A DNA stretch of 59,794 nucleotides, the filler included. It is 5 parts of 5 records of this genome, joined end to end, with 100 filler letters (N's around TTAATTAATTAA, not from the genome) between each part and the next. Parts side by side here need not be neighbours in the genome. Positions count along the whole stretch, not along the records: positions 1 to 25,221 come from SRR31147125_5432; 4 more parts are not named here. The stretch is one strand, 5' to 3'. The position numbers and the translations under genes were made by a program. Positions 1 to 35,604 of the stretch are shown here, piece after piece; within the stretch, counting starts at the first letter, position 1, and every line of letters starts with the position of its first letter. Below the pieces are notes generated by a model, which did not search any database, was not told where the DNA came from, and saw only the letters and a program-made list of their open reading frames with translations.

Positions 1-87
1 AAAAAGAAAAATGTGATCGCGGGATATCCGCATATTCATTTTTATTCTAATTTTGAGTTTTTAAGAAAGGTATTGATAAATGACTAA
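1..87 (+). CDS. cbiA: Cobyrinate a,c-diamide synthase, 3' end only
   Basis: Frame 1 reads KKKNVIAGYPHIHFYSNFEFLRKVLIND*, matching the CbiA/CobB C-terminal YxHxHF motif; it overlaps the cbiC start. Confidence 0.75.
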   Translation, partial: KKKNVIAGYPHIHFYSNFEFLRKVLIND

Positions 88-712: not shown

Positions 713-758
713 TGAAAATTGATTTTAATCTATGATTAACTTTTGGGATTGAGAGACG

Positions 759-1880: not shown

Positions 1881-1953
1881 GCAACATTATTTTCATTGCT
1901 ATTTGTGCGTTTAGCGCTTTGAGTAGTTTTTAGTGAAAGGAATGGATTTTGAT

Positions 1954-3148: not shown

Positions 3149-3161
3149 AGGGATAAGGGAT

Positions 3162-4986: not shown

Positions 4987-4989
4987 AAT

Positions 4990-7429: not shown

Positions 7430-7432
7430 CGA

Positions 7433-9927: not shown

Positions 9928-11180
9928 AAATAGGTGTTGTTGGAATAAGCTATAGGAATGCTTCTTTGGATATTAGGCAAAGGATTAGTTTTACGAAATC
10001 TAGAAGTGCCAAGTTTTGTGATGCTCTAAAAGAGCTTGGAGCTAGCGAAGCTATGGTTTTGAATACTTGTAACAGAACAGAGGTTTATTATGCTTATGAT
10101 GGTGAATGCGATATTGAAGCGATAATTGAAAAATATATCGCCGAGACATTTGGAAAAGACATATGCGATTACCTTTATTATAAAAGAGAAACTCACGCTA
10201 TTGCGCATATTTATATTGTAGCTTGCGGGCTTGATTCTATGGTTATTGGTGAAGATCAAATTTTGGGACAAGTTAAAGATGCTTTGGATGAAGCCAACGA
10301 AAATAAATCTTGCGGTAAGATATTAAATAAAGTAGTTTTGGGAGCAATCACTTTTGCTAAAAGTACAAAGGCAAAATACAAGATAAGCGAAAATCCACTG
10401 AGTCTTGCCTCTATTGCTATTAAGTTTTTGAGCCCTAAAATAAATGGGTTTGACAACAAAGACATTATGCTGATTGGCATGGGTAGTTTTGGTAAGCTGA
10501 TACTTAATTATATATATGATAAGTCCAATATTTATATAGCGACAAGAAGACACGATAAAGAGGACGCAGTATCAGAAATAAAAAGTGAGTATCCTAAAAT
10601 AAATATTGTACCATTTGATAAACGGTATGAGCATATAGTTGATATGGATGTTGTGTTTGGGGTAACTGCTTCTCCGCATATAGTTGTTGCTGCTGATAAA
10701 ATATCCAAACCTAATAAAAGCCAAGTTTTTATGGATGCTGCTGTTCCAAGAGATATTGATGTTGGGGTTAGAAGATTTGATGATGTTACGCTTTATGACG
10801 TTGATGACTTAAAAGCAATATCGGAAAAAAACATCATATATAGAAAAGAAGTTTCGGCATTGATTTCTGATGAAATCAGATGTGAAGCTGAAAAGATGGA
10901 AGATTGGATTGTTAAAACGTATTTTGATGAGACCATTAAAAGTCTCAATGTTTTTGGCGAGTCTGTGTATGAATCTGCTATGCATATGGTAGATAAAAAC
11001 ACGAAAATTTGCGGTAAAGATTATGAGAATATAGACAAGATAATAAAATCTAGCATAAAAAAAATAATAGGTATTCCAATAAAAAATATGAAGAGTGTTT
11101 CTGATTATAGTAGAGTTTTAGAAGTGGACGATAATATGAAATTTTTGTTTGGGCTTTGTGAAGAAGAGGGAGAAAAATGA
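9924..11180 (+). CDS. hemA: Glutamyl-tRNA reductase
   Basis: TCNRTE catalytic motif, GLDSMVIGEDQILGQVK, DAAVPRDID. Confidence 0.93.
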   Translation: MKIGVVGISYRNASLDIRQRISFTKSRSAKFCDALKELGASEAMVLNTCNRTEVYYAYDGECDIEAIIEKYIAETFGKDICDYLYYKRETHAIAHIYIVACGLDSMVIGEDQILGQVKDALDEANENKSCGKILNKVVLGAITFAKSTKAKYKISENPLSLASIAIKFLSPKINGFDNKDIMLIGMGSFGKLILNYIYDKSNIYIATRRHDKEDAVSEIKSEYPKINIVPFDKRYEHIVDMDVVFGVTASPHIVVAADKISKPNKSQVFMDAAVPRDIDVGVRRFDDVTLYDVDDLKAISEKNIIYRKEVSALISDEIRCEAEKMEDWIVKTYFDETIKSLNVFGESVYESAMHMVDKNTKICGKDYENIDKIIKSSIKKIIGIPIKNMKSVSDYSRVLEVDDNMKFLFGLCEEEGEK

Positions 11181-11746
11181 TTATATCATTAAACACAGAA
11201 GGGAAAAAGGCATTAATTATTGGTGGGGGAAAATCTGCCTTGATTAAAGCAAAAAAACTTTATAAAAAAGGGTGCAGGATTACAGTTGTTGCTGATTATG
11301 TTTGCGATGAAGTTAAGGGATTTTGTGACGAAATAATTGAACGGAAATATATAGATGGCGATGAGAATGGATATTTTATTGTAGTTTGTGCGACTGATAA
11401 TGAAGAATTAAACACACAAATTGCCGAAAAGTGTGACAAACAAAAGACGCTTTATTTAAATGTATCTGGGGAATCTAACTTTAGCATGGTTATGTCTAAG
11501 AAAATAGAGGATATAGAGGTTTGTGTTTCTAGTGGTGGTAAGAATGCCGGTTTTTCTAAGTATTTGTGTGAAAAGATTGTAGAAGAATTGAATGATGATA
11601 TTATAAAAAAATTTGAGATGCATACTGCTTTGCGTGAAAAAGTTATTAAGCAGGATATGGACAGAAGTATATTAAAAAGGGCACTTACAATGTCTGCTGA
11701 TGAGATATACGAAAAGTTTTTGAAAGAAGATAAAGCTTTTAGATAA
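11177..11746 (+). CDS. sirC: Precorrin-2 dehydrogenase (CysG N-terminal / SirC / Met8 type)
   Basis: IIGGGKSA Rossmann motif, ATDNEELN, VSSGGKN. Confidence 0.8.
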   Translation: MIISLNTEGKKALIIGGGKSALIKAKKLYKKGCRITVVADYVCDEVKGFCDEIIERKYIDGDENGYFIVVCATDNEELNTQIAEKCDKQKTLYLNVSGESNFSMVMSKKIEDIEVCVSSGGKNAGFSKYLCEKIVEELNDDIIKKFEMHTALREKVIKQDMDRSILKRALTMSADEIYEKFLKEDKAFR

Positions 11747-11784
11747 GTAAAGATATACTTGCTTTTAGAAAGGAACGGTTTTGG

Positions 11785-12681
11785 ATGAAAGTTGTTATAG
11801 GGACTAGAGGCAGCAGGCTTGCGCTTATTCAAACCAATTGGGTTGCGGATAGACTAAAAGAGATATATAGTGATCTGCAAGTTGAGGTTAAGGTTATTAG
11901 CACAAAGGGTGATAGGGTTTTGGACGTTGCTCTTGATAAAATTGGTGATAAGGGTCTTTTTACTAAAGAAATTGAGGATGCTATTTTGGCAAGAGAGGTT
12001 GATTTTTCTGTTAACAGCATGAAAGATATGCCTTCTGTTTTGCCAGGTGGACTTTGTATTACTGCCTGTAAGTCTTTTCAGGATGCAAGGGATGCTCTTG
12101 TAACAAGACATAGTATAGATGATTTTGAGGATTTGCCTAAAAATTCTGTTATTGCAACTGGTAGTAAAAGAAGACTGATGCAGATTAAAGCCATTAGACC
12201 TGATGTTGATATTTGTGGGATTCGTGGCAATGTTGAAACTAGGATAAACAGGATGATAGAAAACGATTATGATGGTGTTATTTTAGCCATGGCTGGGCTG
12301 AATAGACTTGGAATAAATAGAAAAGGTATAAACATTGTGCCGCTTTCTTTTGAGCAAATGGTGCCAGCGCCATGTCAAGGGATTTTGGCTTTAGAGATGA
12401 GGCAAGGAGATGGGCGAGTAATAGATTTGCTTAAGCCATTGCAGGATGATATTACTAATTTGCGAAGTGAAGTTGAAAGAGATTTTTTGAAAGAGATTGA
12501 TGGTGGATGTCATTCTCCTACTGGATGTTACGCTGATGTATTAGATTCCGAAATTATTGTGACAGGGCTTTTTGGAAACTCCGATAGGGTTGTTAGAAAA
12601 ACAAAGAAATGTAAAATAAGCGAAAGAAATGGACTTGCAAAATTGATTGCTAGTGAAATTGTAGAGGAGCTAGGTTTATAA
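11785..12681 (+). CDS. hemC: Hydroxymethylbilane synthase
   Basis: GTRGSRLALIQ, KGLFTKEIE, SMKDMP, RGNVETR and GGCHSP motifs. Confidence 0.96.
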   Translation: MKVVIGTRGSRLALIQTNWVADRLKEIYSDLQVEVKVISTKGDRVLDVALDKIGDKGLFTKEIEDAILAREVDFSVNSMKDMPSVLPGGLCITACKSFQDARDALVTRHSIDDFEDLPKNSVIATGSKRRLMQIKAIRPDVDICGIRGNVETRINRMIENDYDGVILAMAGLNRLGINRKGINIVPLSFEQMVPAPCQGILALEMRQGDGRVIDLLKPLQDDITNLRSEVERDFLKEIDGGCHSPTGCYADVLDSEIIVTGLFGNSDRVVRKTKKCKISERNGLAKLIASEIVEELGL

Positions 12682-12682
12682 T

Positions 12683-14185
12683 ATGGGTAAGGTATATTTA
12701 GTTGGAGCTGGTTGTGGAGATGTTAAGCTTTTGACGCTTAAAGGTAAAGAGGCAATTGAGCGAGCTGATGTTATTATTTATGATTATTTGGCTAATGAGA
12801 AATTGCTTGATTTTAATAAAAATAATGCTGAGCTTATTTATGTTGGAAAAATGGCGAATAACCATGCTATGAAACAAGAGGATATAAATAAATTATTGGT
12901 TAAAAAAGCTAAGGAATGTGATATTGTAGTTAGGCTAAAAGGTGGCGATCCTTATGTTTTTGGAAGGGGCGGAGAAGAAGGACAGGAGCTTTTTGATTCT
13001 GAAATAGATTTTGAAGTTGTTCCTGGTATTAGCTCTACAATTGGGGGAGTAGCTTATGCTGGTATACCGATAACGCATAGAGGCATTGCTACTAGTTTTC
13101 ATATTATTACTGGACACAGAAAAGAGGGCAGCGAGGGCTTGGATTTTTCAGTATATGCTAAGCTTTCTGGTACGCTTGTGTTTGTTATGGGGATTGAGAA
13201 TCTTGATATGATTGTAACGGGATTGCGCGAAAACGGTATGGATAAGGATATGCCTGTTGCTATTGTCGAAAATGCAAGCAAACCTTTTCAAAGAACAATT
13301 GTTGGTAGGCTTTGTGATATTGTAAGTAAGGCTAAAAATATGAACGTTAAACCGCCAGGACTTATTGTTGTGGGTAAAGTTATTGATAAAAGGGATGCGT
13401 TGAATTTTTTTGAACAAAAGCCTCTGTTTGGTAAAAAGGTTTTGATAACAAGAGCAAGAGCGCAGTCGTCTGATTTGGTTAGTAAGCTTTCTGAGCTTGG
13501 AGCGCAGGCTATTGAGGTCCCTTTGATTAAGACTGTTAAGATAAATGATGAATTGCTTGAAAAAGAGATTAATAATATTGGAAGCTTTAATTATGTAATA
13601 TTTACTAGTGTTAACGCTGTTAAAATTGTATTTGAAAAGATGAATTCGTTAAATATTGATTCTAGGTGGTTTTCGGGTATAAAAGTTGTTGCGATTGGTA
13701 GTGCTACAACAAAAGAATTAAAAAAACATGGAATAATTTCAGATATTGTGCCAGAAAAGTTTTGTGGTAAAAGTGTATTTGAGACTATTAAACCTATTCT
13801 TTGCAAGGTTGATAATGTGCTGATACCTTGCTCGAAAATTGCTAAGCCGTATCTTGAAAAAGAGATTGGTAACATTTGCAGTGTTAAAAGGCTAGAAATA
13901 TATGATTCTGTTTTTGATGATATGGATTATAGTGATGTAATTAACAGCATTGAGAAAAGTAGTGTTGATTATATTACATTTACATCTAGCTCTACTGTTA
14001 AAAACTTTGTGAGGGTATTGGTTGACAACAGTATTAGCCATCCGAAAGATATTAAAATTATATCTATTGGACCTATGACGAGTGAGACTGTTCGTGAACT
14101 TGGACTTACTGTTTATAAAGAGGCAAAGATGCATACTATTGATGGTCTGGTAAAGGAGATTTTGGATGATAAGTTTGAAGAATAG
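12683..14185 (+). CDS. cobA: Fused uroporphyrinogen-III C-methyltransferase / uroporphyrinogen-III synthase (CobA-HemD)
   Basis: RLKGGDPYVFGRGGEE and GIPITHR, then PLFGKKVLITR, FTSVNAV and FTSSSTV (HemD domain). Confidence 0.93.
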   Translation: MGKVYLVGAGCGDVKLLTLKGKEAIERADVIIYDYLANEKLLDFNKNNAELIYVGKMANNHAMKQEDINKLLVKKAKECDIVVRLKGGDPYVFGRGGEEGQELFDSEIDFEVVPGISSTIGGVAYAGIPITHRGIATSFHIITGHRKEGSEGLDFSVYAKLSGTLVFVMGIENLDMIVTGLRENGMDKDMPVAIVENASKPFQRTIVGRLCDIVSKAKNMNVKPPGLIVVGKVIDKRDALNFFEQKPLFGKKVLITRARAQSSDLVSKLSELGAQAIEVPLIKTVKINDELLEKEINNIGSFNYVIFTSVNAVKIVFEKMNSLNIDSRWFSGIKVVAIGSATTKELKKHGIISDIVPEKFCGKSVFETIKPILCKVDNVLIPCSKIAKPYLEKEIGNICSVKRLEIYDSVFDDMDYSDVINSIEKSSVDYITFTSSSTVKNFVRVLVDNSISHPKDIKIISIGPMTSETVRELGLTVYKEAKMHTIDGLVKEILDDKFEE

Positions 14186-15149
14186 CCCTATGAGGCTTAG
14201 AAGAAAGGCATATATACGGGATTTAGTGCGAGAAAACGAAATTACTATGAATGATATCATGTATCCTATATTTTTGGCTGAAGGAGAAAATATTCGATGC
14301 GAGATTTCATCTATGAAAGACCAGTTTCATGTATCTGTTGATAAGTTGGAAAAGGAAATTGAGCTTTTGAAGCAAAAGGGTATAAAAGCTCTTCTTGTTT
14401 TTGGTGAGCCAAAAAACAAAGATGAACTTGGAGCATGTGCTTTTTCTGATGATGGGATTATACAAAAGGGAATAAGAAAGATAAAAAGCGTAGCGCCTGA
14501 AATGTTTGTAGCTTCTGATGCGTGTCTTTGTCCTTTTAAAACCGATGGACATTGCGGGTATTTTGATGAAGACGGTGAGATTGAGCTTAAAAAGACTCTG
14601 GATGCACTTTGTGAGATTGCTATTAGTCATGCTAAAGCTGGAAGCGATATGATAGCACCTTCTGATATGATGGACAGTAGAATAGGTGCTATTAGAGGGG
14701 CTTTGGATGATACGGGTTTTTCTCATATTGGTATTATGTCTTATAGTGCTAAGTTTGCTTCTAACTATTATGGACCTTTTAGAGATGCTGTGGATTCTGC
14801 ACCTAGGTTTGGAGATAGAAAAGCTTACCAGATGGATTTTTGTAATAAACGTGAGGCTATGAAAGAGATGGAGCTTGATGTTTTGCAGGGCGCCGATATT
14901 GTAATGGTAAAACCTGCTGGGGCTTATCTTGATATTATTGATAATGCAAAGCAAAGATTTGATTTGCCTATTGCTGCTTATCAAGTTAGTGGTGAATATG
15001 CTATGCTTTATAACGGCGTTAAGCAAGGCGTTGTTGGTAAAGCGGCAATTTATGAAAGTCTTATGGCGATAAAGAGAAGTGGGGCAGATATTATTATCAC
15101 ATATTTTGCAAAAGAGATAGAGGAACTGATTGGAGAGATTAATGGATAG
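14166..15149 (+). CDS. hemB: Porphobilinogen synthase
   Basis: DACLCP...GHCG zinc site, APSDMMD, SYSAKFAS, MVKP and AYQVSGEY motifs. Confidence 0.96.
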   Translation: MISLKNSPMRLRRKAYIRDLVRENEITMNDIMYPIFLAEGENIRCEISSMKDQFHVSVDKLEKEIELLKQKGIKALLVFGEPKNKDELGACAFSDDGIIQKGIRKIKSVAPEMFVASDACLCPFKTDGHCGYFDEDGEIELKKTLDALCEIAISHAKAGSDMIAPSDMMDSRIGAIRGALDDTGFSHIGIMSYSAKFASNYYGPFRDAVDSAPRFGDRKAYQMDFCNKREAMKEMELDVLQGADIVMVKPAGAYLDIIDNAKQRFDLPIAAYQVSGEYAMLYNGVKQGVVGKAAIYESLMAIKRSGADIIITYFAKEIEELIGEING

Positions 15150-16431
15150 ACAAAAATCGCAAGCGATATTTAATGAAGCAAAGCAATATATTCCTGGTGG
15201 TGTTAATAGTCCTGTAAGAGCATTTGGTTCGGTTGGACTATCACCTGTTTTTATAGATTCGGCTAAGGGCAGCAAAATATACGATGTAGATGGTAACGAA
15301 TATATAGATTATATTGGCTCTTGGGGACCTATGATATTGGGGCATTCTTCTGATATTGCTTTAAAAGGTATTGATGATGTTATGAAAAAAAGCACCAGTT
15401 TTGGCTTTGCTAGTGAAATTGAGGTTAAGATGGCAAAGCTTATTTGTGAGGCTCATCCATCTATTGATAGAGTGCGTATGGTGAGTTCTGGTACTGAGGC
15501 TACTATGAGTGCGCTTCGTGTTGCTAGAGGATATACTGGAAGAGATAAGATATTAAAGTTTGAGGGCTGTTATCATGGTCATAGTGATAGTTTGCTTGTG
15601 AAGTCTGGTTCAGGAACGCTTACTTTTGGTGTTCCAACTAGCCCTGGTGTTCCAAGTGATGTAGTGAAAAATACTATTGTTGGCGATTATAATGATGTAA
15701 ATAGTTTAAAAGAAGTTTTTGAAGCCAATAAGAATGAGATTGCAGCTGTTATTTTGGAACCTGTTGCTGGGAATATGGGGGTTGTTGCTCCTACAAAAGA
15801 GTTTTTAAAAGCTTTAAGAGATTTGACCGAGAAGAGTGAAACGGTTTTAATATTTGACGAGGTTATAACTGGTTTTAGACTAGCATATGGTGGCGCTGAA
15901 AAGTATTTTGGTATAACGCCTGATATGGTTTGTCTTGGAAAGATCATTGGTGGAGGCTTGCCTGTTGGTGCTTATGGTGGGAAAGCCGAGATTATGGACT
16001 TTGTTTCACCTGTTGGTGGCGTTTATCAAGCAGGTACGTTATCTGGGAACCCTGTTGCTATGAATATGGGGTATAATGTGCTCTGCTATTTAAGGGATAA
16101 TGCTGATGTTTATACGAGAATTGAAGATATGGCAAAGAAAATGGAAGCTGGTTTTAACGAAAACATCAAAAAAACTGGTGCTAAAGCCAAAGTTGTAAGG
16201 GTAGGCGGAATGCTCTGTTTGTTTTTTACTGATTGTGAGATAGTGAGTTTTTCTGATGTTATGACTTGTGATACTGATAATTACGCTAAATATTTTAAAA
16301 GCATGTTAGATGCCGGAGTGCTTTTAGCGCCTGCACAATTTGAGGGTATATTTATATCGGCGGCACATAGTATGGATGATATTGAAAAGACAATTGAAGC
16401 AAATTATAAAGCATTAAAGGAGATAGTATAA
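15142..16431 (+). CDS. hemL: Glutamate-1-semialdehyde 2,1-aminomutase
   Basis: PGGVNSPVRAF, SGTEATMSA, FDEVITGFR, GKIIGGGLPVGA and QAGTLSGNP motifs. Confidence 0.97.
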   Translation: MDRQKSQAIFNEAKQYIPGGVNSPVRAFGSVGLSPVFIDSAKGSKIYDVDGNEYIDYIGSWGPMILGHSSDIALKGIDDVMKKSTSFGFASEIEVKMAKLICEAHPSIDRVRMVSSGTEATMSALRVARGYTGRDKILKFEGCYHGHSDSLLVKSGSGTLTFGVPTSPGVPSDVVKNTIVGDYNDVNSLKEVFEANKNEIAAVILEPVAGNMGVVAPTKEFLKALRDLTEKSETVLIFDEVITGFRLAYGGAEKYFGITPDMVCLGKIIGGGLPVGAYGGKAEIMDFVSPVGGVYQAGTLSGNPVAMNMGYNVLCYLRDNADVYTRIEDMAKKMEAGFNENIKKTGAKAKVVRVGGMLCLFFTDCEIVSFSDVMTCDTDNYAKYFKSMLDAGVLLAPAQFEGIFISAAHSMDDIEKTIEANYKALKEIV

Positions 16432-17120
16432 TGGCGAAATTTTATGGGATTGGTGTTGGTCCTGGTGATGAAAAACTATTAACGCTTAAGGCGGTTGAGG
16501 TTTTAGAAAAAATTGATGTTTTGCTTATTCCTGAAACAAAATCTGGTAAAAAGGGTGTTGCTCATACTATTGCTGATAAATACCTTAGAGAAGATTTAAT
16601 AATAGAGTATATTTCTTTTCCTATGGTTACCGACGAGGCTGTTTTTGACGAGGCTGGAAAAAAAGCTTGTGAGATAATAGAGAAATATATAATACAAGAA
16701 AAAAATGTAGGGTTCATAACTCTTGGTGACCCAAGTGTTTACAGCACTTATGGATACATAGCAAAACAGGCCAAGGGTAAAGTTGATGTTGAAACTATTC
16801 CTGGTATAACTTCTTTTTGCGCGGCTGCGGCTATGGATAACAGACCATTGGTGCAAAAGGATGAGGTTTTGTGTATTGTGCCCATGAATGCTAGTGACGA
16901 CAAAATTGATAAAGTTTTAAAAGTGGCTGATGCTTTTATGTTTATGAAAGTATATAAAAGAGAGAAAAGATTGTTTGATCTTTTAAAGAAAAACAAACTT
17001 ATAAAAAACGCTATGATGGCTTTAAGGTGCGGATTTAAAGATGCTAGTGTAGCTAAGGATTTTGAAAAACAGCTTTTAGATAATAAGGAATATTTATCGG
17101 TTGTTCATACTAGAAAATAG
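16431..17120 (+). CDS. cbiL: Cobalt-factor II / precorrin-2 C20-methyltransferase
   Basis: YGIGVGPGDEKLLTLKA, FPM, LGDPSVYST, PGITS and FMK motifs. Confidence 0.92.
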   Translation: MAKFYGIGVGPGDEKLLTLKAVEVLEKIDVLLIPETKSGKKGVAHTIADKYLREDLIIEYISFPMVTDEAVFDEAGKKACEIIEKYIIQEKNVGFITLGDPSVYSTYGYIAKQAKGKVDVETIPGITSFCAAAAMDNRPLVQKDEVLCIVPMNASDDKIDKVLKVADAFMFMKVYKREKRLFDLLKKNKLIKNAMMALRCGFKDASVAKDFEKQLLDNKEYLSVVHTRK

Positions 17121-17258: not shown

Positions 17259-17798
17259 TTAAAACAAAAATATGGCAACATACGAGACTGTGTTTTTTCC
17301 GTTAATATAGGGTATATCACATGTTTTACAAAGTTCTACAACATTTATGCAATAGGCTTCTATAGATGGTTTTGCTTTGTTTGGTAAACGGCAAGGTTTG
17401 TCTGGATATGTGCAATTTTCGCATAAGCTGCACGAGCCTGCTTTTAGCGAATAGTGTTTGTTTTTGCAAGTATTATCAATATATTCGTCAAGTTCGTAAA
17501 ATAAAGACTCGAAATTATCACCAGCACTAAGCATACCCTCGATGTCGAATGAATCTTCTATGGAATAGATTTTTTGAATAACAACGACATCATCATATGC
17601 TAATATTTTTTGTTTTAAATCTTCATATTCTCCGCACGCTGGAGGGCAATGCCAATTTGTATTGTACTTTCCACAGGTGTTTGCGCTACAATATTCTCTT
17701 AAAACAGGATCAAAGGTTAAATTAGATGTTTTGGTGGCTGCAATATTGTCATACTCCATTAGTCTTGCTTTTTCACATACTTTTGAAATTATATCCAT
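17259..17798 (-). CDS. Cys-rich predicted metal-binding protein (DUF2284-like)
   Basis: CxxNxCGKY...CPP and GSCSLCENCTYPDKPCRLP...PSIEAYCINV pattern. Confidence 0.75.
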   Translation of the reverse strand: MDIISKVCEKARLMEYDNIAATKTSNLTFDPVLREYCSANTCGKYNTNWHCPPACGEYEDLKQKILAYDDVVVIQKIYSIEDSFDIEGMLSAGDNFESLFYELDEYIDNTCKNKHYSLKAGSCSLCENCTYPDKPCRLPNKAKPSIEAYCINVVELCKTCDIPYINGKNTVSYVAIFLF

Positions 17799-17897
17799 AG
17801 CTATCTCCGTTTGTAGTCTGTATTGCTTTTCTGATTTTATGTAATACTATCATAATGAATTTAATAATTAAAGCAAATGAGCATGAACACGCTGAAA

Positions 17898-17962
17898 AAA
17901 GCATATATGTGCAGTTTTTTGCTATTTAGAACATTTTAATTAGGTTAATGTTTAGATACAAT
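17898..17962 (+). promoter_or_regulatory. Putative AraC-type tandem operator and -10 element of the methyltransferase gene
   Basis: GCATATATGTGCA and GCTATTTAGAACA half-sites 20 bp apart, TACAAT at 17957; similar arrangement at 21772. Confidence 0.55.
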
Positions 17963-18006
17963 ATTTATAAAATTAGAGATAATACAATTTATTGGAGGCG
18001 AAAAAA

Positions 18007-19371
18007 ATGACGGGTAAAGAAAGAATTTTCAATATACTTAATAAGCAAGAAACGGATAGAATTCCATGGATTCCTTTTGCTGGTATTCATGCAGGTAAGC
18101 TTACTGGTGCAAAGCCTAAGGATATACTAACGGATTCGGATACATTGATTAAGGCCTTAGATGAGGTTAAAAAAGTTTATAATGCGGATGCTATTCCTGT
18201 TCACTTTGACTTACAGATTGAAGCTGAAATTTTGGGATGTGAATTGGTTTGGTCAGAAAACTCACCACCGAGTGTTAAAACACATCCTCTTGATGGAATG
18301 GATCCTGTAGAATATGAAAAGGTAATGCCTAAAAAGAGTGATGGAAGGTTGCAGGTATTTTTAGATGCTATGGAGCAAACTAAGAAAAACCATGGAGATG
18401 ATACTGCTTTAATCGGGCTTATATGCGGACCTTTTACGTTAGCTTCTCACTTAAGAGGGCAAAATATTTTTATGGACATGATATTGAATGCTGATTATGT
18501 TCATGGTCTAATTGAATATTGCGCGGAAGTTGCGAAAGTAGTTTCTGACATGTATATTGAAGCTGGTATGGATATTATTGCTGCGGTCGACCCATTGGTA
18601 TCTCAGATTTCACCAGATCATTTTGAGGAATTTATTACAAAACCATTCTCGGATTTATTTGATCATATTCATAAGCAAGACAAGTTTGCTTCTTTCTTTG
18701 TTTGTGGTAATGCAACTAATAATATAGAAAAAATGTGTCAAACTAAGCCTGATATGGTTGCTGTTGATGAAAACGTAGATATGAAGTCTGCTAAAGAGAT
18801 TACTGATAAATATGATATTGTGCTTTCTGGTAATATTCCGCTAGCTACATTGATGCTAAATGGAACACAACAAGAAAATATGATTTATGTACTTGATATG
18901 ATGGACAACCTTACGCACAATAATTTAGTTATTTCTCCTGGGTGTGATATGCCGTATGATGTTCCGCCAGAAAATACAGCGGCAGTTCAACAGGCTATTG
19001 CAGACCCTGAAAAAGCTAGAGAAATTGTTAAAAACTACACTGCTAAGAGCTATGAAGGTATTGATGCGGAGCTACCAGATTATGATAGTTTAGAAAAACC
19101 GTTTATCGAAGTTTATACGTTAGATTCTGAAAGCTGTGCTGCTTGTACTTATATGCTTGGTGCTGCTATGGATGCTAAAGAAAAGTATGGCGATAAAATT
19201 GATGTTGTTGAATATAAGATGCTAGATGAGAAGACGGTCCCTATGATGATGAAAATGGGTGTTAAGAATCTTCCTACTATGGTTATTGACGGAAAAATAG
19301 AATATATTTCAATTATTCCGCCAAAAAGTGAGCTTTATGCAAAAATTGATGAATCATTGAAGGGATTCTAA
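18007..19371 (+). CDS. URO-D/MtaA-CmuA family methyltransferase with a C-terminal thioredoxin-like domain
   Basis: EAEILGC, GPFTLA, VCG and SPGCD motifs, then SCAAC and NLPTMVIDG (thioredoxin fold); GGAGG before ATG 18007. Confidence 0.85.
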   Translation: MTGKERIFNILNKQETDRIPWIPFAGIHAGKLTGAKPKDILTDSDTLIKALDEVKKVYNADAIPVHFDLQIEAEILGCELVWSENSPPSVKTHPLDGMDPVEYEKVMPKKSDGRLQVFLDAMEQTKKNHGDDTALIGLICGPFTLASHLRGQNIFMDMILNADYVHGLIEYCAEVAKVVSDMYIEAGMDIIAAVDPLVSQISPDHFEEFITKPFSDLFDHIHKQDKFASFFVCGNATNNIEKMCQTKPDMVAVDENVDMKSAKEITDKYDIVLSGNIPLATLMLNGTQQENMIYVLDMMDNLTHNNLVISPGCDMPYDVPPENTAAVQQAIADPEKAREIVKNYTAKSYEGIDAELPDYDSLEKPFIEVYTLDSESCAACTYMLGAAMDAKEKYGDKIDVVEYKMLDEKTVPMMMKMGVKNLPTMVIDGKIEYISIIPPKSELYAKIDESLKGF

Positions 19372-19393
19372 TATATAATATTTAAATGTATTT

Positions 19394-19429
19394 TAGCATC
19401 CACTACACTGTATTTGTGGATGCTATTTT
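19394..19429 (+). terminator. Hairpin / probable intrinsic terminator between the methyltransferase and cobW
   Basis: TAGCATCCAC...GTGGATGCTA followed by TTTT. Confidence 0.5.
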
Positions 19430-19446
19430 AAAAGGAGCAAAAACTT

Positions 19447-20376
19447 ATGGTTGATTTAATAATAGTTATGGGATTTTTGGGTTCTGGAAAAACTACTTTT
19501 TTGGAGGACGTGTTAAAAGATAATAGCGAAAGAGTAGGCGTTGTTGTTAACGAGTTTGGTGCTGTGTCTGTTGATGGCGAAAGGCTTAAGCTTGGTAACA
19601 ATATTGATGTTTTAGAAGTTAACTCTGGATCTATCTTTTGCGCGTGTAAAGTTGACTTTTTTATCCAGTCAATTTTTGCATTGATAGACCAAGGTATTGA
19701 TAAGATTTATGTTGAGTCTAGTGGGCTTTCTAACCCTACAAGCATTGAAAAAATTATGAATGATTTAAATACACTTAAAAAGAGCAAAGAGGATGTAAGA
19801 GTCAGGAGTTTTGTTAGTATTGCTGATGCCGAAAGGATTGATAAATTGCTTTTGTCATCTGTCGCGGCTATTTCTCAAATTCAAAGAGCAGATATTGTAC
19901 TGCTTAATAAAATTGATATTGTAGACAATAAGCAGAAAAAAATTGCAATTGATGCTATAAAAAAAGTCAATGATGGCGCTAATATATATCCTTGTGTTAA
20001 CTGTAAGGTTGATAAAAGCATATTGGATAAAGTGTTTGATGATGATAAAAGATTAGAGTGTATAGAGCCAAAGCCAATATCCGAAAGAAGCTTTACTATT
20101 GAAGATGATAAGCAAATACCAAAGCAAAAGTTGGATGCATTTATAGATGATATTGCCCCTATTTGTGTTAGGATAAAGGGTTTTTTGAATATTGATGGAA
20201 CAAAGAAATATATTGACGTTGTAGAAAAGCATGTAAAAATAAGCGATTGCGATATAGATAAGCCTTGCGAGTTAGTAATAATTGTTTTTGAAGATGAAAA
20301 AGAGAATGCTATGAATGTACTTTTGAAAAAGTGGGAAAACTGTATTGGAAGTGTGCCAAATCGAATATATGAGTAG
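19447..20376 (+). CDS. CobW/COG0523 family G3E GTPase (metallochaperone)
   Basis: GFLGSGKTT, NEFG, GSIFCAC, ESSG, NKID motifs and a CobW_C RIKG motif. Confidence 0.88.
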   Translation: MVDLIIVMGFLGSGKTTFLEDVLKDNSERVGVVVNEFGAVSVDGERLKLGNNIDVLEVNSGSIFCACKVDFFIQSIFALIDQGIDKIYVESSGLSNPTSIEKIMNDLNTLKKSKEDVRVRSFVSIADAERIDKLLLSSVAAISQIQRADIVLLNKIDIVDNKQKKIAIDAIKKVNDGANIYPCVNCKVDKSILDKVFDDDKRLECIEPKPISERSFTIEDDKQIPKQKLDAFIDDIAPICVRIKGFLNIDGTKKYIDVVEKHVKISDCDIDKPCELVIIVFEDEKENAMNVLLKKWENCIGSVPNRIYE

Positions 20377-20426
20377 TATCCTTCGTTTTATGATATAATA
20401 TATAAAAAAGTTGAAGGGTAGAAGTT

Positions 20427-21773
20427 TTGATAAACGAAACATTATCAAAAGAATTAAAGCACATAATAAAGGGTGATAAATATTTAAAGTCATTTACACT
20501 AGCGACTGGTGTGGATGCTTCTATTTATAGGTATGGCGATATCAGTGATTTTGAGGGTGAAGAGGATATATCTTCTACGGTGTCGGTTGATTCGTGCTGT
20601 CAAAATAAGTGTAGGAGCTCTGCTTTTTGCTCTGTTGTGCATAGGTCTGAAAAAGGAAGTGCTGCTTGTGCTAAGTTTAGACAAGATGCTTCGCTTCAAT
20701 GCATTAGCTTGGGAGAAAGTTATATAACAAGATGTCATGCTGGGCTTACCCTTTGTTTTGCACCGCTTTTATATGAGGATAGATGCATTGGAGCTATTAC
20801 TTGTGGTCCTTTTATAATGTGGGATTTTGATGATTTTGCTAAAGAAGAGGCAAAAGCTTTAGCAAAAAAACTTGAAGTGGATGAAGCTAACTTGCTGATA
20901 GCTGGAGAACTTTTGGCAAAGAAAACATCAGCAGAGGTTGGCGCTTTGGCAGATGTTTTGTTTAGTTTGGCGGAACAACTAGCTGGTAAAAGGTCGCATT
21001 TGCTTTCTAAAAACCTTAACATAAACTATCAACAAGCTAGAATTGCAGAACTTTTACACAAGATGAAGCAGACAGAAAATATGATTGAAGTTTTGGAAGA
21101 TACAGAAAAGACATCGAGTTATCCGCTTAGTAAAGAAAATGAACTTATTGGACTTGTAAAGACTGGTGATAGGGCTAGTGCTAAAGAGATTTTGAATGAG
21201 ATATTAGTTCATGTTTTTTATCACGATTCTGGTAAATTGGATGTGTTAAAGGCTAGAGTTTTGGAGCTTGTTGTTGTTATATCGAGAGCTGCTGTTGAAT
21301 CTGGTGCTGGGCTTAAACATATGCTGGGTATAAATTTTGAAATGATTAGTAATTTTGCAAAAATAGATGAGTTTACTGAGATTTGCAACTGGGTTACAAA
21401 GACGCTTGATGAGATGATGGATGAGATTTATAACAGCAGAAATGTTAAGTGCTCTGCACTACTATCTAAAGCTATGGAATATATTAGAGATCATTATAAT
21501 GAAGATATATCGTTAGAAGATGTTGCAAGACAGGTTGTTGTTAGTGAATCGTACGTTAGTCATTTGTTTGGTAGAGAGTTAGGTGTTACTTTTTCTGGGT
21601 ATTTGACTAAGGTTAGAATAGAAAAAGCTAAACAATTGCTAAAAACTACGGACCTTTCCGTTTTTATGATATCTGAGATGGTAGGATATGATCAAGCTGG
21701 TTATTTTAGCAAAGTATTCAAGAAGCACGTGGGGACTACTCCTGGTAAGTTTAGAAGAGGAGATATAGTTTAA
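20427..21773 (+). CDS. PocR-sensor domain AraC-family transcriptional regulator
   Basis: N-terminal FC...C...CHAGL...AP PocR pattern; C-terminal AraC HTH (ISEMVGYDQAGYFSKVFKKHVGTTPGKFR). Confidence 0.88.
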   Translation: MINETLSKELKHIIKGDKYLKSFTLATGVDASIYRYGDISDFEGEEDISSTVSVDSCCQNKCRSSAFCSVVHRSEKGSAACAKFRQDASLQCISLGESYITRCHAGLTLCFAPLLYEDRCIGAITCGPFIMWDFDDFAKEEAKALAKKLEVDEANLLIAGELLAKKTSAEVGALADVLFSLAEQLAGKRSHLLSKNLNINYQQARIAELLHKMKQTENMIEVLEDTEKTSSYPLSKENELIGLVKTGDRASAKEILNEILVHVFYHDSGKLDVLKARVLELVVVISRAAVESGAGLKHMLGINFEMISNFAKIDEFTEICNWVTKTLDEMMDEIYNSRNVKCSALLSKAMEYIRDHYNEDISLEDVARQVVVSESYVSHLFGRELGVTFSGYLTKVRIEKAKQLLKTTDLSVFMISEMVGYDQAGYFSKVFKKHVGTTPGKFRRGDIV

Positions 21774-21835
21774 AGCATAATAGTACAATTTTGTGCTGGA
21801 AAGTGCATTTATATGTAGTTTATTTGATTTATAAT
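21772..21835 (+). promoter_or_regulatory. Putative AraC-type tandem operator and -10 element of the corrinoid protein gene
   Basis: GCATAATAGTACA and GCTGGAAAGTGCA half-sites 20 bp apart, TATAAT at 21830. Confidence 0.55.
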
Positions 21836-21866
21836 ATAAATAACAAAGCGTGGAGGATAGTATATT

Positions 21867-22493
21867 ATGTTTACTGAATTAAGTTTAGCGGTTAAAGGTG
21901 GTAATGCGCCGAAAGTTAAGGAACTAACAGATGGTTTTATAGCTCAAGGTATTGAACCAGAAGATATCTTAAACAAGGGTCTTATTGATGGTATGATGGA
22001 AATTGGTGTTTTGTTTAAAAACAACCAAGTATATGTGCCAGAAGTTTTGATTGCTGCAAGAGCTATGTATGCTGGTTTAGATATCATTAAACCACTACTT
22101 GCACAAAAAGACTTTAAAGCAAAAGGTAAAGTTGCTATTGGAACAGTTAAAGGCGATTTGCATGATATCGGCAAAAACCTTGTTTCTATGATGATGGAAG
22201 GTTCTGGTCTTGAGGTTATTGATCTTGGAACTGATGTTGGGGCTGATAAGTTTATTGCTGCTGTTAAAGAAGAAGGGGCGCAAATTGTTGCAATGAGCGC
22301 GTTGCTTACTACAACAATGCCGGAAATGAAAAACATTATTGAAGCTTTGACTAAAGAAGGTTTGCGTAATGATGTTAAGGTTATGATTGGTGGAGCACCA
22401 GTTACTGAATCTTTTGCAGAGCAAATTGGAGCTGATTTTTATACTGATGATGCGGCTTCTGCTGCTAATACAGCTATTCAAGCTTTAGCTTAG
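21867..22493 (+). CDS. Corrinoid (B12-binding) methyl-carrier protein, MtaC/MttC-like
   Basis: Cap domain YVPEVLIAARAM, DxHxxG motif GDLHDIGKNLV, SALLTTT and IGGAP. Confidence 0.93.
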   Translation: MFTELSLAVKGGNAPKVKELTDGFIAQGIEPEDILNKGLIDGMMEIGVLFKNNQVYVPEVLIAARAMYAGLDIIKPLLAQKDFKAKGKVAIGTVKGDLHDIGKNLVSMMMEGSGLEVIDLGTDVGADKFIAAVKEEGAQIVAMSALLTTTMPEMKNIIEALTKEGLRNDVKVMIGGAPVTESFAEQIGADFYTDDAASAANTAIQALA

Positions 22494-22517
22494 TATTTAA
22501 AAAGAGATGATCAAATT

Positions 22518-22546
22518 GCACTGTTGAAGTTTTTGACAGTGCTTTT
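22518..22546 (+). terminator. Intrinsic terminator after the corrinoid protein gene
   Basis: GCACTGTTGAA...TTTGACAGTGC followed by TTTT. Confidence 0.6.
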
Positions 22547-22677
22547 ATTATTACAATATTAAGTGTTATAAAAGTTAATAATTATCATTTAGGAGTTCAA
22601 TATCAATGACTTTATTTTCAGGATTATTTGTTCCTTAAATGTTTCGGATAGTAGCTTTGAAAGGAATGGATTTTTTT

Positions 22678-24249
22678 ATGCTAAATATTACAATTAGAAA
22701 TACTGAAAGCACCAAAACAATACAAGCAAAAAAAGGACAAAACCTATATGAGGTTTTAGCTGAGCAAGGTTATATTGAAAATGCTCCGTGTGGTGGCAAA
22801 GGGCTTTGCGGCAAATGCAAAGTTAAAATTATTGATAAGAGTATTTTGCCTACAAAGGAGGATAAGGATTTATTATCCGACAAAGAGCTTGGAGATGGTG
22901 TTAGGCTTTCGTGTAAAATTGTTATTGAACAGGATATAGAGATTGAAGTTAATAATTCATTAAAATCATTTGGTGGACTTACTGTCTTAAACGATAAAAT
23001 TAAGCCTGATGAGTTGCTGTTTGCCTTGGATATTGGAACGACTACTTTGGATGGGGTTTTATTGGATAAGCAAACTCAAACGCAGCTTTTAAGACTGACC
23101 AAGATGAATTCTCAGAAAAAGTATGGTGCTGATGTTTTTACTAGAATGAATTACTCGCTGGACAGTGAACAAAATAGGCAAAATCTTATGGATACTATTA
23201 TGGATGATATTAATGAGATGGCGAGAAAGATGACGGATGCCTTGGGGGTTGAAGTATCTTGTATTAAAGGTTTTACTGTTTCTGGCAATACCACTATGAT
23301 TCATATGCTTTTATGCAAAGATGTAAGGAAACTAGCATTTGCACCTTTTGTAACCGATTACTTAGCGCCAAAGGATATTACAGCTTCGGATATTGGGTTT
23401 GTATCTAATGATTCTGTTATCAACATAATGCCAGCTTCATCTTCGTTTATCGGTGGTGACATAACTTCTGGCGCGGCTTTTATGGGAGTTGATAAGGCGC
23501 ATGAAAACAGTTTGTTTATTGACCTTGGAACTAACGGTGAGATGATACTTACGAACGGGGATAGTGTTGTTGGGTGCTCTGTTGCGGCGGGACCTGCTTT
23601 TGAAGGTGCGGAGATTATCTGCGGTATGAGTGCACTTAAGGGTGCGATATCGGTTGTTATTTATGATGAAGATAAAAAGGATATTGTATATAAGACTATT
23701 GATGATGCGGAAGCTTGTGGAATATGTGGCTCGGGGCTTATTGATGTCGTTGCATTGTTTAAAAAATATTCTATTATTGATGAAACTGGCAGGATAGTGG
23801 ACGAGCATGAGGTTCCTGCCTTTAATAAAAGAATATTTAAAATTGACGATGAAAATTGTTTTATGCTATATGAATCTGATGGAAATAGGGTATATATAAG
23901 TCAGCGTGATATCAGGAACTTTCAGCTTGCGAAAGCAGCGATAAAGACAGGGATTGTTATGCTTTTAGAAAAAGAAGACCTTAAACCTGAACAACTGGAT
24001 ACTATTTTTATTGCTGGTGGCTTTGGAAAACACATATCTAATGAAAGTATATATGATAGCGGTATAATGCCGTTTAAGCATGGAAGTATTAAGGTTGTAG
24101 GCAATACATCGCTAAAAGGCGCGATTGAAGCTTCTTGTGATAATGAATTTAAACAAAGAGTTTATGCTTTTAGTGAAAAGGTTGAAGTGTTCTTGTTGTC
24201 AAAACATCCGAATTTTCAGATGATGTTTGTAGACAATATGATGTTTTAG
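22678..24249 (+). CDS. ASKHA-domain reductive activator of corrinoid proteins (RACE/RACo, DUF4445) with an N-terminal 2Fe-2S ferredoxin
   Basis: CGGKGLCGKC...RLSC, DIGTTT, DLGTNGE, AGPAFEG, GICGSG and QLAKAAI motifs. Confidence 0.9.
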   Translation: MLNITIRNTESTKTIQAKKGQNLYEVLAEQGYIENAPCGGKGLCGKCKVKIIDKSILPTKEDKDLLSDKELGDGVRLSCKIVIEQDIEIEVNNSLKSFGGLTVLNDKIKPDELLFALDIGTTTLDGVLLDKQTQTQLLRLTKMNSQKKYGADVFTRMNYSLDSEQNRQNLMDTIMDDINEMARKMTDALGVEVSCIKGFTVSGNTTMIHMLLCKDVRKLAFAPFVTDYLAPKDITASDIGFVSNDSVINIMPASSSFIGGDITSGAAFMGVDKAHENSLFIDLGTNGEMILTNGDSVVGCSVAAGPAFEGAEIICGMSALKGAISVVIYDEDKKDIVYKTIDDAEACGICGSGLIDVVALFKKYSIIDETGRIVDEHEVPAFNKRIFKIDDENCFMLYESDGNRVYISQRDIRNFQLAKAAIKTGIVMLLEKEDLKPEQLDTIFIAGGFGKHISNESIYDSGIMPFKHGSIKVVGNTSLKGAIEASCDNEFKQRVYAFSEKVEVFLLSKHPNFQMMFVDNMMF

Positions 24250-24322
24250 TAATATCTTTTACATTGCTTAATTGAATTTTTATGCTATAATCCTACTAGA
24301 TAATTTTTAGGAGATTATAGCA

Positions 24323-25090
24323 TTGTTAGTATATTTTTTTATTGCATTATTTGCTACAGTAATTGGCTCTACCGCAGGCATGGGTGGAGGATTTATTATA
24401 AAACCACTTATTGATTTGATTAGTGATTATAATATTGCAACTATTTCTATATTATCGTCTATAACTGTTCTTAGTATGTCTGTTGTCTCGACGATTAAGC
24501 AGATAGAAAACGGTTTTAAAATTTCTAAAAACGTCGTTTATTCAACTATAGGTGCGATTGTTGGTGGGATTGTTGGTAGCTTGGTTTTCTCATTTTTAAA
24601 AGATTCGATGGATGAGGGATTTGTTACTGTTATTCAATCTATAGTTTTGATAGTGCTTTTGATATTTTGTCTTGCTTATGAAAAATTTAAAATTAGGAAA
24701 AAGAAAACCGGTATTGCAGTAATGGTTTTTGGTTTTTTCCTCGGGCTGGTTAGTTCTTTTATAGGTATTGGTGGCGGGCCTATTAATGTTGCTGTGCTTT
24801 GTATATTTTTAGGATTAGAATTAAGAGTCGCGGCTAGAATTTCTGTTTTTATTGTCTTGTTTTCTCAAATGACGGGGCTTATAACGAAGGGTATTAATGG
24901 GATGTTTTTGCAAGTTGAAGACTACAGAGTGCTTTTGGTTATGATTCCTACAGCGATTATTGGCGGACTTATTGGATCTAGCTTAAATATTAAATTATCT
25001 GATAAAGCTATAAGAACCACTTATATGGCTTCTGTTATAATTGTTATATTTATATGTATTGTTAATATATATAAGATAGTAATGATATAA
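24323..25090 (+). CDS. Sulfite exporter TauE/SafE family membrane protein
   Basis: Two GxGGG repeats (GMGGGFIIKP, GIGGGPIN) and about eight hydrophobic helices. Confidence 0.85.
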   Translation: MLVYFFIALFATVIGSTAGMGGGFIIKPLIDLISDYNIATISILSSITVLSMSVVSTIKQIENGFKISKNVVYSTIGAIVGGIVGSLVFSFLKDSMDEGFVTVIQSIVLIVLLIFCLAYEKFKIRKKKTGIAVMVFGFFLGLVSSFIGIGGGPINVAVLCIFLGLELRVAARISVFIVLFSQMTGLITKGINGMFLQVEDYRVLLVMIPTAIIGGLIGSSLNIKLSDKAIRTTYMASVIIVIFICIVNIYKIVMI

Positions 25091-25221: not shown

Positions 25222-25321
25222 NNNNNNNNNNNNNNNNNNNNNNNNNNNNNNNNNNNNNNNNNNNNTTAATTAATTAANNNNNNNNNNNNNNNNNNNNNNN
25301 NNNNNNNNNNNNNNNNNNNNN
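25222..25321. other. Artificial contig-joining spacer
   Basis: N-run + TTAATTAATTAA (stops in six frames) + N-run, 100 nt. Confidence 0.98.
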
Positions 25322-26481: not shown

Positions 26482-26528
26482 AACGATAATTTTTAGTGAA
26501 TAACTTAAAACCAAATTTCCTGTTTAAG

Positions 26529-35504: not shown

Positions 35505-35604
35505 NNNNNNNNNNNNNNNNNNNNNNNNNNNNNNNNNNNNNNNNNNNNTTAATTAATTAANNNNNNNNNNNNNNNNNNNNNNNNNNNNNNNNNNNNNNNN
35601 NNNN
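35505..35604. other. Artificial contig-joining spacer
   Basis: N-run + TTAATTAATTAA + N-run. Confidence 0.98.

Follow-up and report, generated by a model that had tools for sequence, protein, structure and literature searches.

A putative corrinoid methyl-transfer module of anaerobic bacteria centred on an MtaA-like methyltransferase fused to a thioredoxin-fold domain

Where would the methyl group go in a bacterial corrinoid-dependent methyl-transfer system that encodes a single methyltransferase? This question is raised by a block of genes at positions 17259 to 25090 of a 59,794-nucleotide stretch of DNA (hereafter the window, 59.8 kb, five pieces joined end to end), which the original prediction had described as an uncharacterised corrinoid methyl-transfer system with one methyltransferase, lying next to a B12 operon. 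The description as an uncharacterised methyl-transfer system is borne out by the domains of the encoded proteins and by the recurrence of the gene set, and from these sequences the block appears to be a copy of a corrinoid methyl-transfer module that is conserved among anaerobic bacteria and has spread horizontally. At its centre stands a fusion of a URO-D barrel with a thioredoxin-fold domain, referred to here as the hub. We tentatively favour, at somewhat less than even confidence, a reading in which the hub unloads methyl-corrinoid onto a soft nucleophile and the enzymes donating the methyl group are encoded elsewhere. The block and its immediate surroundings comprise the following features:

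80..17120, plus strand: cbi/hem operon for anaerobic B12 and sirohaem-branch synthesis (Pfam)
17259..17798, minus strand: DUF2284 protein (Pfam PF10050, 145.5 bits)
18007..19371, plus strand: hub, MtaA-like URO-D barrel plus thioredoxin-fold domain (Pfam URO-D 188 bits; TIGR01463 162 bits)
19447..20376, plus strand: COG0523/CobW-type GTPase (Pfam cobW PF02492 115 bits; CobW_C PF07683 27.5 bits, cut-off 22)
20427..21773, plus strand: PocR-sensor AraC-type regulator (Pfam PocR 86 bits, HTH_18 77 bits)
21867..22493, plus strand: corrinoid (B12-binding) methyl-carrier protein with the motif GDLHDIG (Pfam B12-binding_2, B12-binding)
22518..22552, plus strand: terminator-like hairpin with T run, 3' of the corrinoid gene (consensus scan)
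22639..24249, plus strand: RACo/RACE-type reductive activase (RACo_C_ter 234 bits, Raco_middle 136 bits, Fer2 35.8 bits)
24323..25090, plus strand: TauE/SafE-family membrane transporter (Pfam TauE 112 bits)
25222..25321, no strand: assembly junction, N runs around TTAATTAATTAA, end of the contig carrying the cluster

Gene identities were checked with Pfam and NCBIfam, and all seven genes named by the original prediction lie directly after cbi/hem where it had placed them. The DUF2284 gene had been called divergent, which is correct for its direction of transcription and incorrect for its sequence. Alignment with relatives puts the start of the hub at ATG 18007, not at TTG 17992, and the start codon of RACo is uncertain by about 12 codons, its relatives being 524–525 aa long.

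The hub is widespread. Among 7999 scored candidates, 5041 homologues were found at E ≤ 0.001, the best 120 of which all measure 447–465 residues, and in contigs taken at one genome per species 588 of 600 matched stretches hold a relative, so that at least 588 species genomes carry one. Carriers, at 53–61% identity, include Clostridia, Lachnospiraceae, Oscillospiraceae, Spirochaetes, Chloroflexi, Victivallaceae (Lentisphaerae), Ilyobacter (Fusobacteria) and Desulfobacteraceae (Desulfobacterota). An intact hub open reading frame (ORF) was present in 75 of 80 fetched genome loci and in 76 of 80 metagenome loci, many of them short, giving 151 related loci in total. Neighbours of the hub in the 75 genome loci are CobW (65), the corrinoid protein (49), PocR-AraC (46), RACo (39) and DUF2284 (15); in the 76 metagenome loci they are CobW (49), the corrinoid protein (29), RACo (18), PocR (18) and DUF2284 (6). 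These accessory-gene counts stem from single-sequence phmmer searches and are lower bounds, since the same type of search missed every TauE gene in these loci. CobW lies directly 3' of the hub in most genome-locus rows. In the three closest relatives with long flanks (L100, L104 (75%) and L101 (77%)) the order is hub, CobW, PocR-AraC, corrinoid protein, RACo, with DUF2284 upstream in L100 and L104, and within 10 kb these loci show no TauE, no cbi/hem genes and no second methyltransferase. Because the same gene set recurs beside the hub in 151 related loci, the arrangement lies far beyond chance, and the conserved unit consists of hub, CobW, PocR-AraC, corrinoid protein and RACo, sometimes joined by DUF2284. 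The neighbourhood survey suggested by the original prediction thus finds CobW, corrinoid protein, PocR and RACo recurring, DUF2284 less often, and TauE rarely, as detailed below. Our literature search, with most subscription journals and supplements outside its coverage, found no publication on the URO-D–thioredoxin fusion. As a separate observation, 11 of 80 genome loci have, next to the hub or CobW, a BioB/PylB-like radical SAM protein of about 320–360 aa that shows a weak BATS domain (L001:12473-13474, L020:12501-13508, L063:8928-9950 and eight more).

The two parts of the hub are a URO-D barrel at about residues 1–340 and a thioredoxin-fold domain at about residues 362–454, the latter matched weakly by Pfam Thioredoxin_3 (21.4 bits, under its cut-off). 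NCBIfam scores, used as a rough stand-in for placing the hub among MtaA, MtbA and CmuA relatives, give MtaA/CmuA (TIGR01463, 162.2 bits against a cut-off of 235.4) as the nearest family of the barrel, followed by PRK06252 (147/244), MtbA (143/600) and MtaA (136/400), yet the hub remains under every cut-off. The AlphaFold2 (AF2) model (pLDDT 91.8, pTM 0.88) has a URO-D TIM-barrel fold like that of MtaA, with PDB 4AY7 and 4AY8 as best Foldseek matches (template-modelling (TM) score 0.88–0.89 on the target, E 6e-22). 4AY7 is MtaA of Methanosarcina mazei, with which the hub shares 22% identity, and the TM score of 0.88 to this structure confirms the proposed MtaA-like character at the level of fold. 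When the hub is aligned with 4AY7, the histidine of the MtaA H-x-C motif falls on Phe231 (FFVCG), and the two zinc cysteines fall on Cys233 and Cys313. Conservation was read from alignments of 20 and 66 sequences; F231, C233, C244, D254-E255-N256, C313 (PGCDMPY) and C377-A-A-C380 of the thioredoxin domain are invariant in the 66, and the barrel as a whole is strongly constrained (mean column identity about 70%). Kountz and Balskus (PMC10418091) describe the S-methyltransferases of this superfamily as His-Cys-Cys enzymes and the O-methyltransferases as having one or both cysteines replaced. By its residues the hub fits neither of these patterns, with both cysteines present and the histidine gone. 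Its active-site metal, probably zinc, would be coordinated by Cys233, Cys313 and one acidic residue from the Asp-Glu-Asn (DEN) motif. A longer hub variant, with open frames of 544–574 aa scoring 470–486 bits against the hub profile, was noticed in Spirochaetia (G017, G020, G023, G096, G111) and may have an extra domain.

For the CobW-type GTPase, a role as metallochaperone of the hub is predicted from modelling. Pfam recognises its P-loop GTPase and CobW_C domains, and the P-loop is kept (GFLGSGKTT). The CxCC motif of COG0523 proteins is shortened to FCAC (Cys65, Cys67), of which F64, C65 and C67 are invariant in 41 sequences; CobW is far less conserved than the hub, with partners 25–32% identical and a poorly conserved C-terminal part. 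Models of the hub–CobW complex scored 0.62, 0.66 and 0.66, the best of three controls scoring 0.00, and the mark applied is reached by 51 of 78 solved complexes and by 2 of 108 mismatched pairs. The runs share at least 78% of their contacts, the partner pLDDT is at least 72, and the confident interface joins hub residues 233–235, 254, 256 and 313–316 with CobW residues 64–71. The Cys-x-Cys motif of CobW is thereby set onto the putative metal ligands of the hub, a placement which would support metal delivery to the active site. In the proposed scheme CobW would insert the metal by docking this motif onto the hub ligands. Among known members of the family, such as CobW, ZigA and YeiR, the protein shares the P-loop GTPase and CobW_C domains and a Cys motif in the same place; it differs by CxC instead of CxCC, and a specific client, as predicted here, is rare. 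Haas et al. (PMC2770081) report a COG0523 subfamily in Methanosarcina that co-localises with corrinoid methyltransferases.

The remaining proteins carry the parts that a methyl-transfer cycle would require. In the corrinoid protein the B12-binding_2 cap, the Rossmann B12 domain and the DxHxxG motif are all present, the latter (GDLHDIG) conserved to at least 90% in 53 sequences; it scores 197 bits for TIGR02370 against a cut-off of 215, its MtgC/MtbC-like NCBIfam matches lie under their cut-offs, and it is 51% and 46% identical to MtaC2 and MtaC1 of Acetobacterium bakii. It would carry the methyl group on cobalt. RACo has its N-terminal 2Fe-2S, middle and ASKHA ATPase domains, with NCBIfam scores for the AcsV and RamA equivalogs under their cut-offs, and as activase would return oxidised Co(II) to Co(I) with ATP and electrons. 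A possible Fe-S donor of these electrons is the DUF2284 protein, an optional accessory of the module rich in cysteines, whose C-x2-C-x2-C-x6-C motif looks like a 4Fe-4S site in sequence and whose cysteines are conserved in 16 aligned sequences. The PocR-AraC protein is homologous over its full length to MtaR, the methanol regulator of acetogens (29% identity across 430 residues with the gene at the MtaR position in A. bakii), and would activate the genes when it senses a small molecule. Some loci also encode a domain of about 225 aa that faintly resembles the MetH activation domain (18 bits), either in a gene of its own behind CobW (L068:12342-13025 plus six other loci) or at the front of RACo proteins of 686–811 aa (e.g. 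L020:15658-18075); the window RACo is without it.

Whether the hub acts alone was approached from the window, from related loci and from whole genomes of carriers. Searches of the 59.8-kb window by phmmer with ten methyltransferase queries matched the hub and the corrinoid protein alone, and found no MttB, MtaB, pterin-binding, homocysteine (Hcy)-pterin or further URO-D gene. The earlier observation that the cluster has neither a first methyltransferase (MT1) of the MttB/MtaB type nor a pterin-binding second methyltransferase (MT2) thus stands; because the cluster sits at a contig end, it can be claimed for the window and not for the organism. The further claim of a single methyltransferase is valid for the cluster and its three closest relatives, and does not extend to related loci in general, 48 of which (21 of 75 genome and 27 of 76 metagenome loci) have another methyltransferase-like gene no more than 10 kb away from the hub. 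In the genome set this gene is of the MttB type in 5 loci and a URO-D paralog in 16; in the metagenome set it is of the MttB type in 10, a URO-D paralog in 12, a URO-D–corrinoid fusion in 2, an Hcy-pterin protein in 2 and a pterin MT2 in 1. Over all 151 loci a stand-alone pterin MT2 is found beside the hub once, an Hcy-pterin protein three times, and MtaB in none. Two arrangements deserve attention. An operon of hub, CobW, MttB and corrinoid protein recurs (L014, L113 and others), and in three loci a divergent URO-D paralog is fused to a corrinoid domain in a CmuA-like architecture of 651–657 aa, directly upstream of the hub at L148:4076-6031 and L170:7908-9881 and two genes upstream at L030:6698-8653 (a Chloroflexi metagenome-assembled genome). 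In either case the additional gene is the one expected to encode the substrate-side enzyme, and no candidate but the hub is left for the second step. In Caldicoprobacter-like loci we also noted, near the hub, a split MetH-like protein of 533–567 aa that has homocysteine S-methyltransferase and pterin-binding domains and lacks a B12 domain, and therefore would need a separate corrinoid protein (L098:11793-13478, L022:6822-8510, L109:3407-5110 and L117:2652-4253, all on the minus strand); it directly adjoins the hub in L022.

Five carrier genomes were surveyed as a whole, those of Caldicoprobacter oshimai, Wukongibacter, a Vallitaleaceae, a Spirochaetia and a Victivallaceae, which hold 10, 4, 4, 23 and 15 URO-D matches, respectively, and one to a few small corrinoid proteins each. 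An MT1 elsewhere in the genome had been named as what would overturn the one-enzyme proposal, and the 4–23 URO-D matches in each of these five fuller genomes come close to it. MtrH and ComA, the latter for coenzyme M synthesis, were found in none of the five, and PF00809 matched frames of FolP or MetH size plus one Hcy-pterin protein and nothing else. MttB as an obligatory partner was rejected, being present in one of the five; MtaB occurs in one of four other carrier genomes. Large expansions of divergent URO-D paralogs were found in G001, G004, G005, the Spirochaetia sample and L083–L099, with up to 72 first-look candidates per genome. In two annotated carrier genomes the paralogs sit in sugar loci, next to glycoside hydrolase (GH) 123, apiosidase-like and GH78 rhamnosidase genes, sulfatases, NanE, lyxose isomerase, sugar kinases and LacI/AraC regulators. 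Their metal positions, aligned tentatively with MAFFT from very divergent sequences, read H-x-C...H/N or D-x-D...H, not Cys...Cys, and we regard them as candidate B12-dependent sugar O-demethylases. Among 121 sampled Spirochaetia genomes, at least 10 URO-D matches occur in 26 of 34 with the hub and in 9 of 87 without; as these are related genomes with confounded lifestyles, at most 15 matches scored per genome and nine hub-less genomes that are also paralog-rich, this lends weak support to the hub tracking with paralog number.

Two neighbours on which the original prediction had relied turned out to be loosely attached. An iterated profile detects a TauE-family ORF in 10 of 151 hub loci, where single-sequence phmmer with the window TauE detects it in none; in seven of them the distance is at most 3 kb, and the ORF then always sits upstream, on the strand opposite to the hub, in loci of the hub–CobW–MttB type. 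TauE is placed outside the conserved core because of this low count and its absence from L100, L101 and L104, and its inclusion in the system is not upheld. Its association with the hub has arisen at least two times, each in a different arrangement, and hints weakly at a connection with sulfonate or sulfite. The cbi/hem operon (cbiC, cbiD, several tetrapyrrole methylases, cbiG, cbiJ, cobQ-type, cobD and hemA/C/D/B/L-type genes by Pfam) does adjoin the module here as described, and is context only: with HemL and the last cbi gene as queries, no ORF was labelled in the rows listed for the 75 genome loci, cbi-like matches reach at most 2 of 76 metagenome loci per gene, and the link is not conserved.

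Among known systems, the methanogen enzymes MtaA and MtbA are closest to the hub, by fold (TM 0.88 to 4AY7), by the two aligned zinc cysteines, by the nearest family TIGR01463, and by working beside a DxHxxG corrinoid protein and an activase. The hub differs from them by its 22% identity and sub-cut-off scores, by Phe for the ligand His, by the fused thioredoxin domain, and by its occurrence in bacteria, with ComA in none of the five genomes. The Type 1 mlp clusters (PMC10418091) are similar as well: they hold bacterial URO-D relatives of the coenzyme M methyltransferases with a corrinoid protein and a RACE activase, lack a folate methyltransferase, are widespread in anaerobes and have a proposed soft (S or Se) substrate. 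These clusters contain two to three Mlp genes with His-Cys-Cys, of which at least Mlp2 and Mlp3 are required; the window likewise has a corrinoid protein and a bacterial-type RACE and differs in having one URO-D gene without the His, a thioredoxin fusion, CobW and PocR-AraC. In the text of that paper neither thioredoxin fusion nor CobW nor PocR is mentioned, and the hub is set apart by this description.

The methanol operon of A. bakii starts with homologous genes for a PocR-AraC regulator, a corrinoid protein and a CobW-type GTPase, with identities to the window proteins of 29% for MtaR, 46–51% for MtaC1/MtaC2 and 30% for MtaW (gene names after PMC13602510, in which MtaR is the activator of the methanol operon). 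Its catalytic genes are MtaB and a pterin-binding MtaA, neither of which is in the window cluster, and its MtaW keeps the full CxCC (CVCC) where the window CobW has CxC. At the MtaX position of this operon (L082:8019-8492) we noticed a gene for a protein of 157 aa with no Pfam match and a His-rich, Cys-bearing tail; it lies directly 3' of a short CobW-domain gene, and the pair looks like a split COG0523 protein. A canonical bacterial O-/N-demethylase would add an MT1 (MttB, MtaB or O-demethylase type), which the window cluster lacks, and a pterin-binding or MtrH-type MT2, which is missing from the window. The MtsA/MtsB methylthiol:coenzyme M and CmuA/CmuB chloromethane systems also pair a URO-D-fold methyltransferase with a corrinoid partner, and the second enzyme of CmuA systems is of the pterin type, not URO-D. 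Like CmuA, the paralogs in L030, L148 and L170 are fused to their corrinoid domain. With the one-enzyme system of MtsA the gene content of the window is compatible; as a general rule, such a scheme is disfavoured by the second methyltransferase-like gene present in 48 of 151 loci.

We propose a tentative model in which the hub, as the one catalytic methyltransferase of the module, would carry out the second half-reaction, moving the methyl group from the methyl-Co(III) corrinoid protein to a thiol or sulfide as MtaA and MtbA do with coenzyme M. The first methyltransferases would be MttB-type enzymes or divergent URO-D paralogs encoded elsewhere, with none beside the module in the lineage of the window. 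We infer this direction of transfer because second methyltransferase-like genes lie near the hub (48/151) and a stand-alone pterin MT2 hardly ever does (1/151), because operons of hub, CobW, MttB and corrinoid protein and URO-D–corrinoid fusions recur, and because the five carrier genomes have no MtrH, MttB in one case and 4–23 URO-D matches each. Since both cysteines of the hub are kept and a thioredoxin domain is fused, a sulfur compound is pointed to as the acceptor. Sulfide-dependent O-demethylation by anaerobes, reportedly described by Bak et al. in 1992, would be a physiological precedent.

Several points weigh against this model. The module family is known from sequences and models, and its conserved neighbourhood includes no sulfur-metabolism genes; with ComA in none of the five genomes, coenzyme M as acceptor gains no support. 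All NCBIfam scores of the hub for MtaA, MtbA and CmuA are under their cut-offs, and with Phe231 in place of the ligand His the site is not a canonical His-Cys-Cys site, so that metal and chemistry could differ from those of MtaA. The score of the complex with CobW is the model's own confidence and no measurement, and the model was made without the alignments of this analysis. Folate is pointed to by the split MetH-like Hcy-pterin protein that Caldicoprobacter-like loci encode near the hub, and by a gene similar to methylenetetrahydrofolate reductase (MTHFR) beside URO-D paralogs in L092. Finally, 54 of 75 genome and 49 of 76 metagenome loci, the three nearest long-flanked relatives among them, lack a second methyltransferase within 10 kb and fit a one-enzyme system equally well.

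In such an MtsA/MtsB-like system, which we consider unlikely, the hub would itself demethylate a methyl-thiol or other methyl-X compound and then pass the methyl group to a second thiol, with TauE moving a sulfur compound and PocR sensing the substrate, as the original prediction had it. The lone methyltransferase of the cluster, with none elsewhere in the window, fits this scheme, as do the three closest relatives and the 103 of 151 loci without a second enzyme nearby, the two kept Cys ligands with the fused thioredoxin domain, and the recurrence of TauE in a second arrangement (7 loci within 3 kb). It is weakened by the absence of TauE from the closest relatives and from 141 of 151 loci, by the contig end after TauE, by the further URO-D paralogs in all five carrier genomes, and by the 48 loci with a second methyltransferase-like gene, where adjoining methyltransferase–corrinoid fusions argue for two enzymes. 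The near absence of pterin-type MT2 genes beside the hub, where MttB-type MT1 genes do occur, can also be read such that the hub is a URO-D-fold methyl-corrinoid:tetrahydrofolate methyltransferase replacing the pterin MT2 (MtgA, MtqA or acetogen MtaA), a protein that in known bacterial systems is clustered (PMC10418091). The MTHFR-like gene adjoining URO-D paralogs in L092 agrees with this, and in carriers of the Desulfobacteraceae type folate use would be expected. We know of no URO-D-fold enzyme that binds folate, the Cys-rich site and the thioredoxin fusion would have no obvious role in folate methylation, and Caldicoprobacter-like loci have a separate Hcy-pterin protein near the hub, which leaves a folate-methylating hub quite improbable.

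More doubtful is a hub that acts as a URO-D-fold analogue of MtaB, loading methanol onto the corrinoid protein or, in reverse, releasing methanol so that the system would hydrolyse methyl ethers without any acceptor. PocR-AraC, corrinoid protein and CobW do match the head of the acetogen methanol operon, and many carriers are sugar fermenters without stand-alone pterin-type or MtrH-type MT2. This analogy leans on the presumed zinc ligands of MtaB, probably Cys, Cys and a carboxylate, which the predicted site of the hub would resemble. No sequence relation links the hub to MtaB, and the O-methyltransferases lose Cys ligands (PMC10418091) where the hub keeps both. A function with selenium or a metalloid, in which dimethylselenide or methylselenol would be demethylated for selenium scavenging, or selenide or arsenite methylated, would draw on the superfamily and partners (corrinoid protein, RACE) shared with mlp clusters, on the demethylation of methylcobalamin by ClMlp2 with selenide (PMC10418091), and on two weak NCBIfam matches, both under their cut-offs, in which the thioredoxin domain hits TsoX (19.4 bits) and CobW hits a CobW-related selenoprotein (39.7 bits). 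The window has one URO-D gene without His, compared with the His-Cys-Cys of Mlp2 and Mlp3, the text of PMC10418091 is without thioredoxin fusion, CobW and PocR, and the annotated hub neighbourhoods hold no selenium genes; we judge this function to be very improbable. Least credible to us is that the module is a device for handling or sensing B12, i.e. for cofactor loading, repair or regulation, and not for catabolic methyl transfer. The cbi/hem genes beside it, the naming of CobW after cobalamin synthesis, and the Sporomusa mta operon, in which the regulator and the first corrinoid gene are constitutively expressed together (PMC12456013), would suit such a device. The cbi/hem adjacency is not conserved, however, a full MtaA-like active-site barrel is kept under strong constraint, and the hub occurs in operons with MttB-type and methyltransferase–corrinoid fusion genes.

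As to transcription of the block, the hairpin at 22518–22552 may divide it into two transcripts, which the evidence supports weakly: a consensus scan gave 5 terminator-like sites in the region against 3.3 expected, and neither promoters nor terminators rose above chance. An Rfam scan found no B12 riboswitch or other RNA near the cluster, its single match, an L10 leader, lying on a different contig. The assembly junction follows 131 bases beyond the cluster; the token in the list above stands for its six-frame stop linker, which sits between N runs and joins the contigs of the window, and such junctions lie at 25222–25321, 35505–35604, 46575–46674 and 54610–54709. The G+C content of the window jumps from about 0.35 to 0.50–0.55 in parts of the later pieces (36–46 kb and 54–58 kb), so that the pieces are perhaps not all of one organism. 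The next contig has a gene for a spondin-like repeat protein (25270–26514, minus strand; NF038123, 243 bits), truncated by the assembly gap, and after it come a two-component system and a transaldolase, unrelated to the cluster.

The paralog-rich genomes allow a further, speculative reading, whose chances we rate as low: non-acetogenic anaerobes that ferment sugars may run a hub-and-spoke demethylation network with the hub as its common exit. Dozens of divergent URO-D paralogs in glycan loci would strip O-methyl groups from methylated sugars and all charge the one corrinoid protein whose gene lies beside the hub, from which the CobW-metallated hub would pass them to sulfide or a thiol, giving methanethiol, or to water, giving methanol. 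Such a network would bring B12-dependent methyl-ether cleavage into the breakdown of plant and algal polysaccharides, would possibly supply the long-missing enzyme of sulfide-dependent O-demethylation, and could be one way in which methanethiol or methanol arises biologically.

For bacteria, corrinoid methyl transfer is mainly understood as the sequence of a substrate enzyme, a carrier and a folate enzyme. The module described here, which at least 588 species genomes of anaerobes from gut, sediment and digesters contain, instead appears to have a second enzyme of the methanogen style. For the COG0523 GTPases, of which very few have known clients, it offers a concrete candidate client. Identifying the acceptor of the hub would show the fate of methyl groups in anaerobes without the usual folate enzyme.

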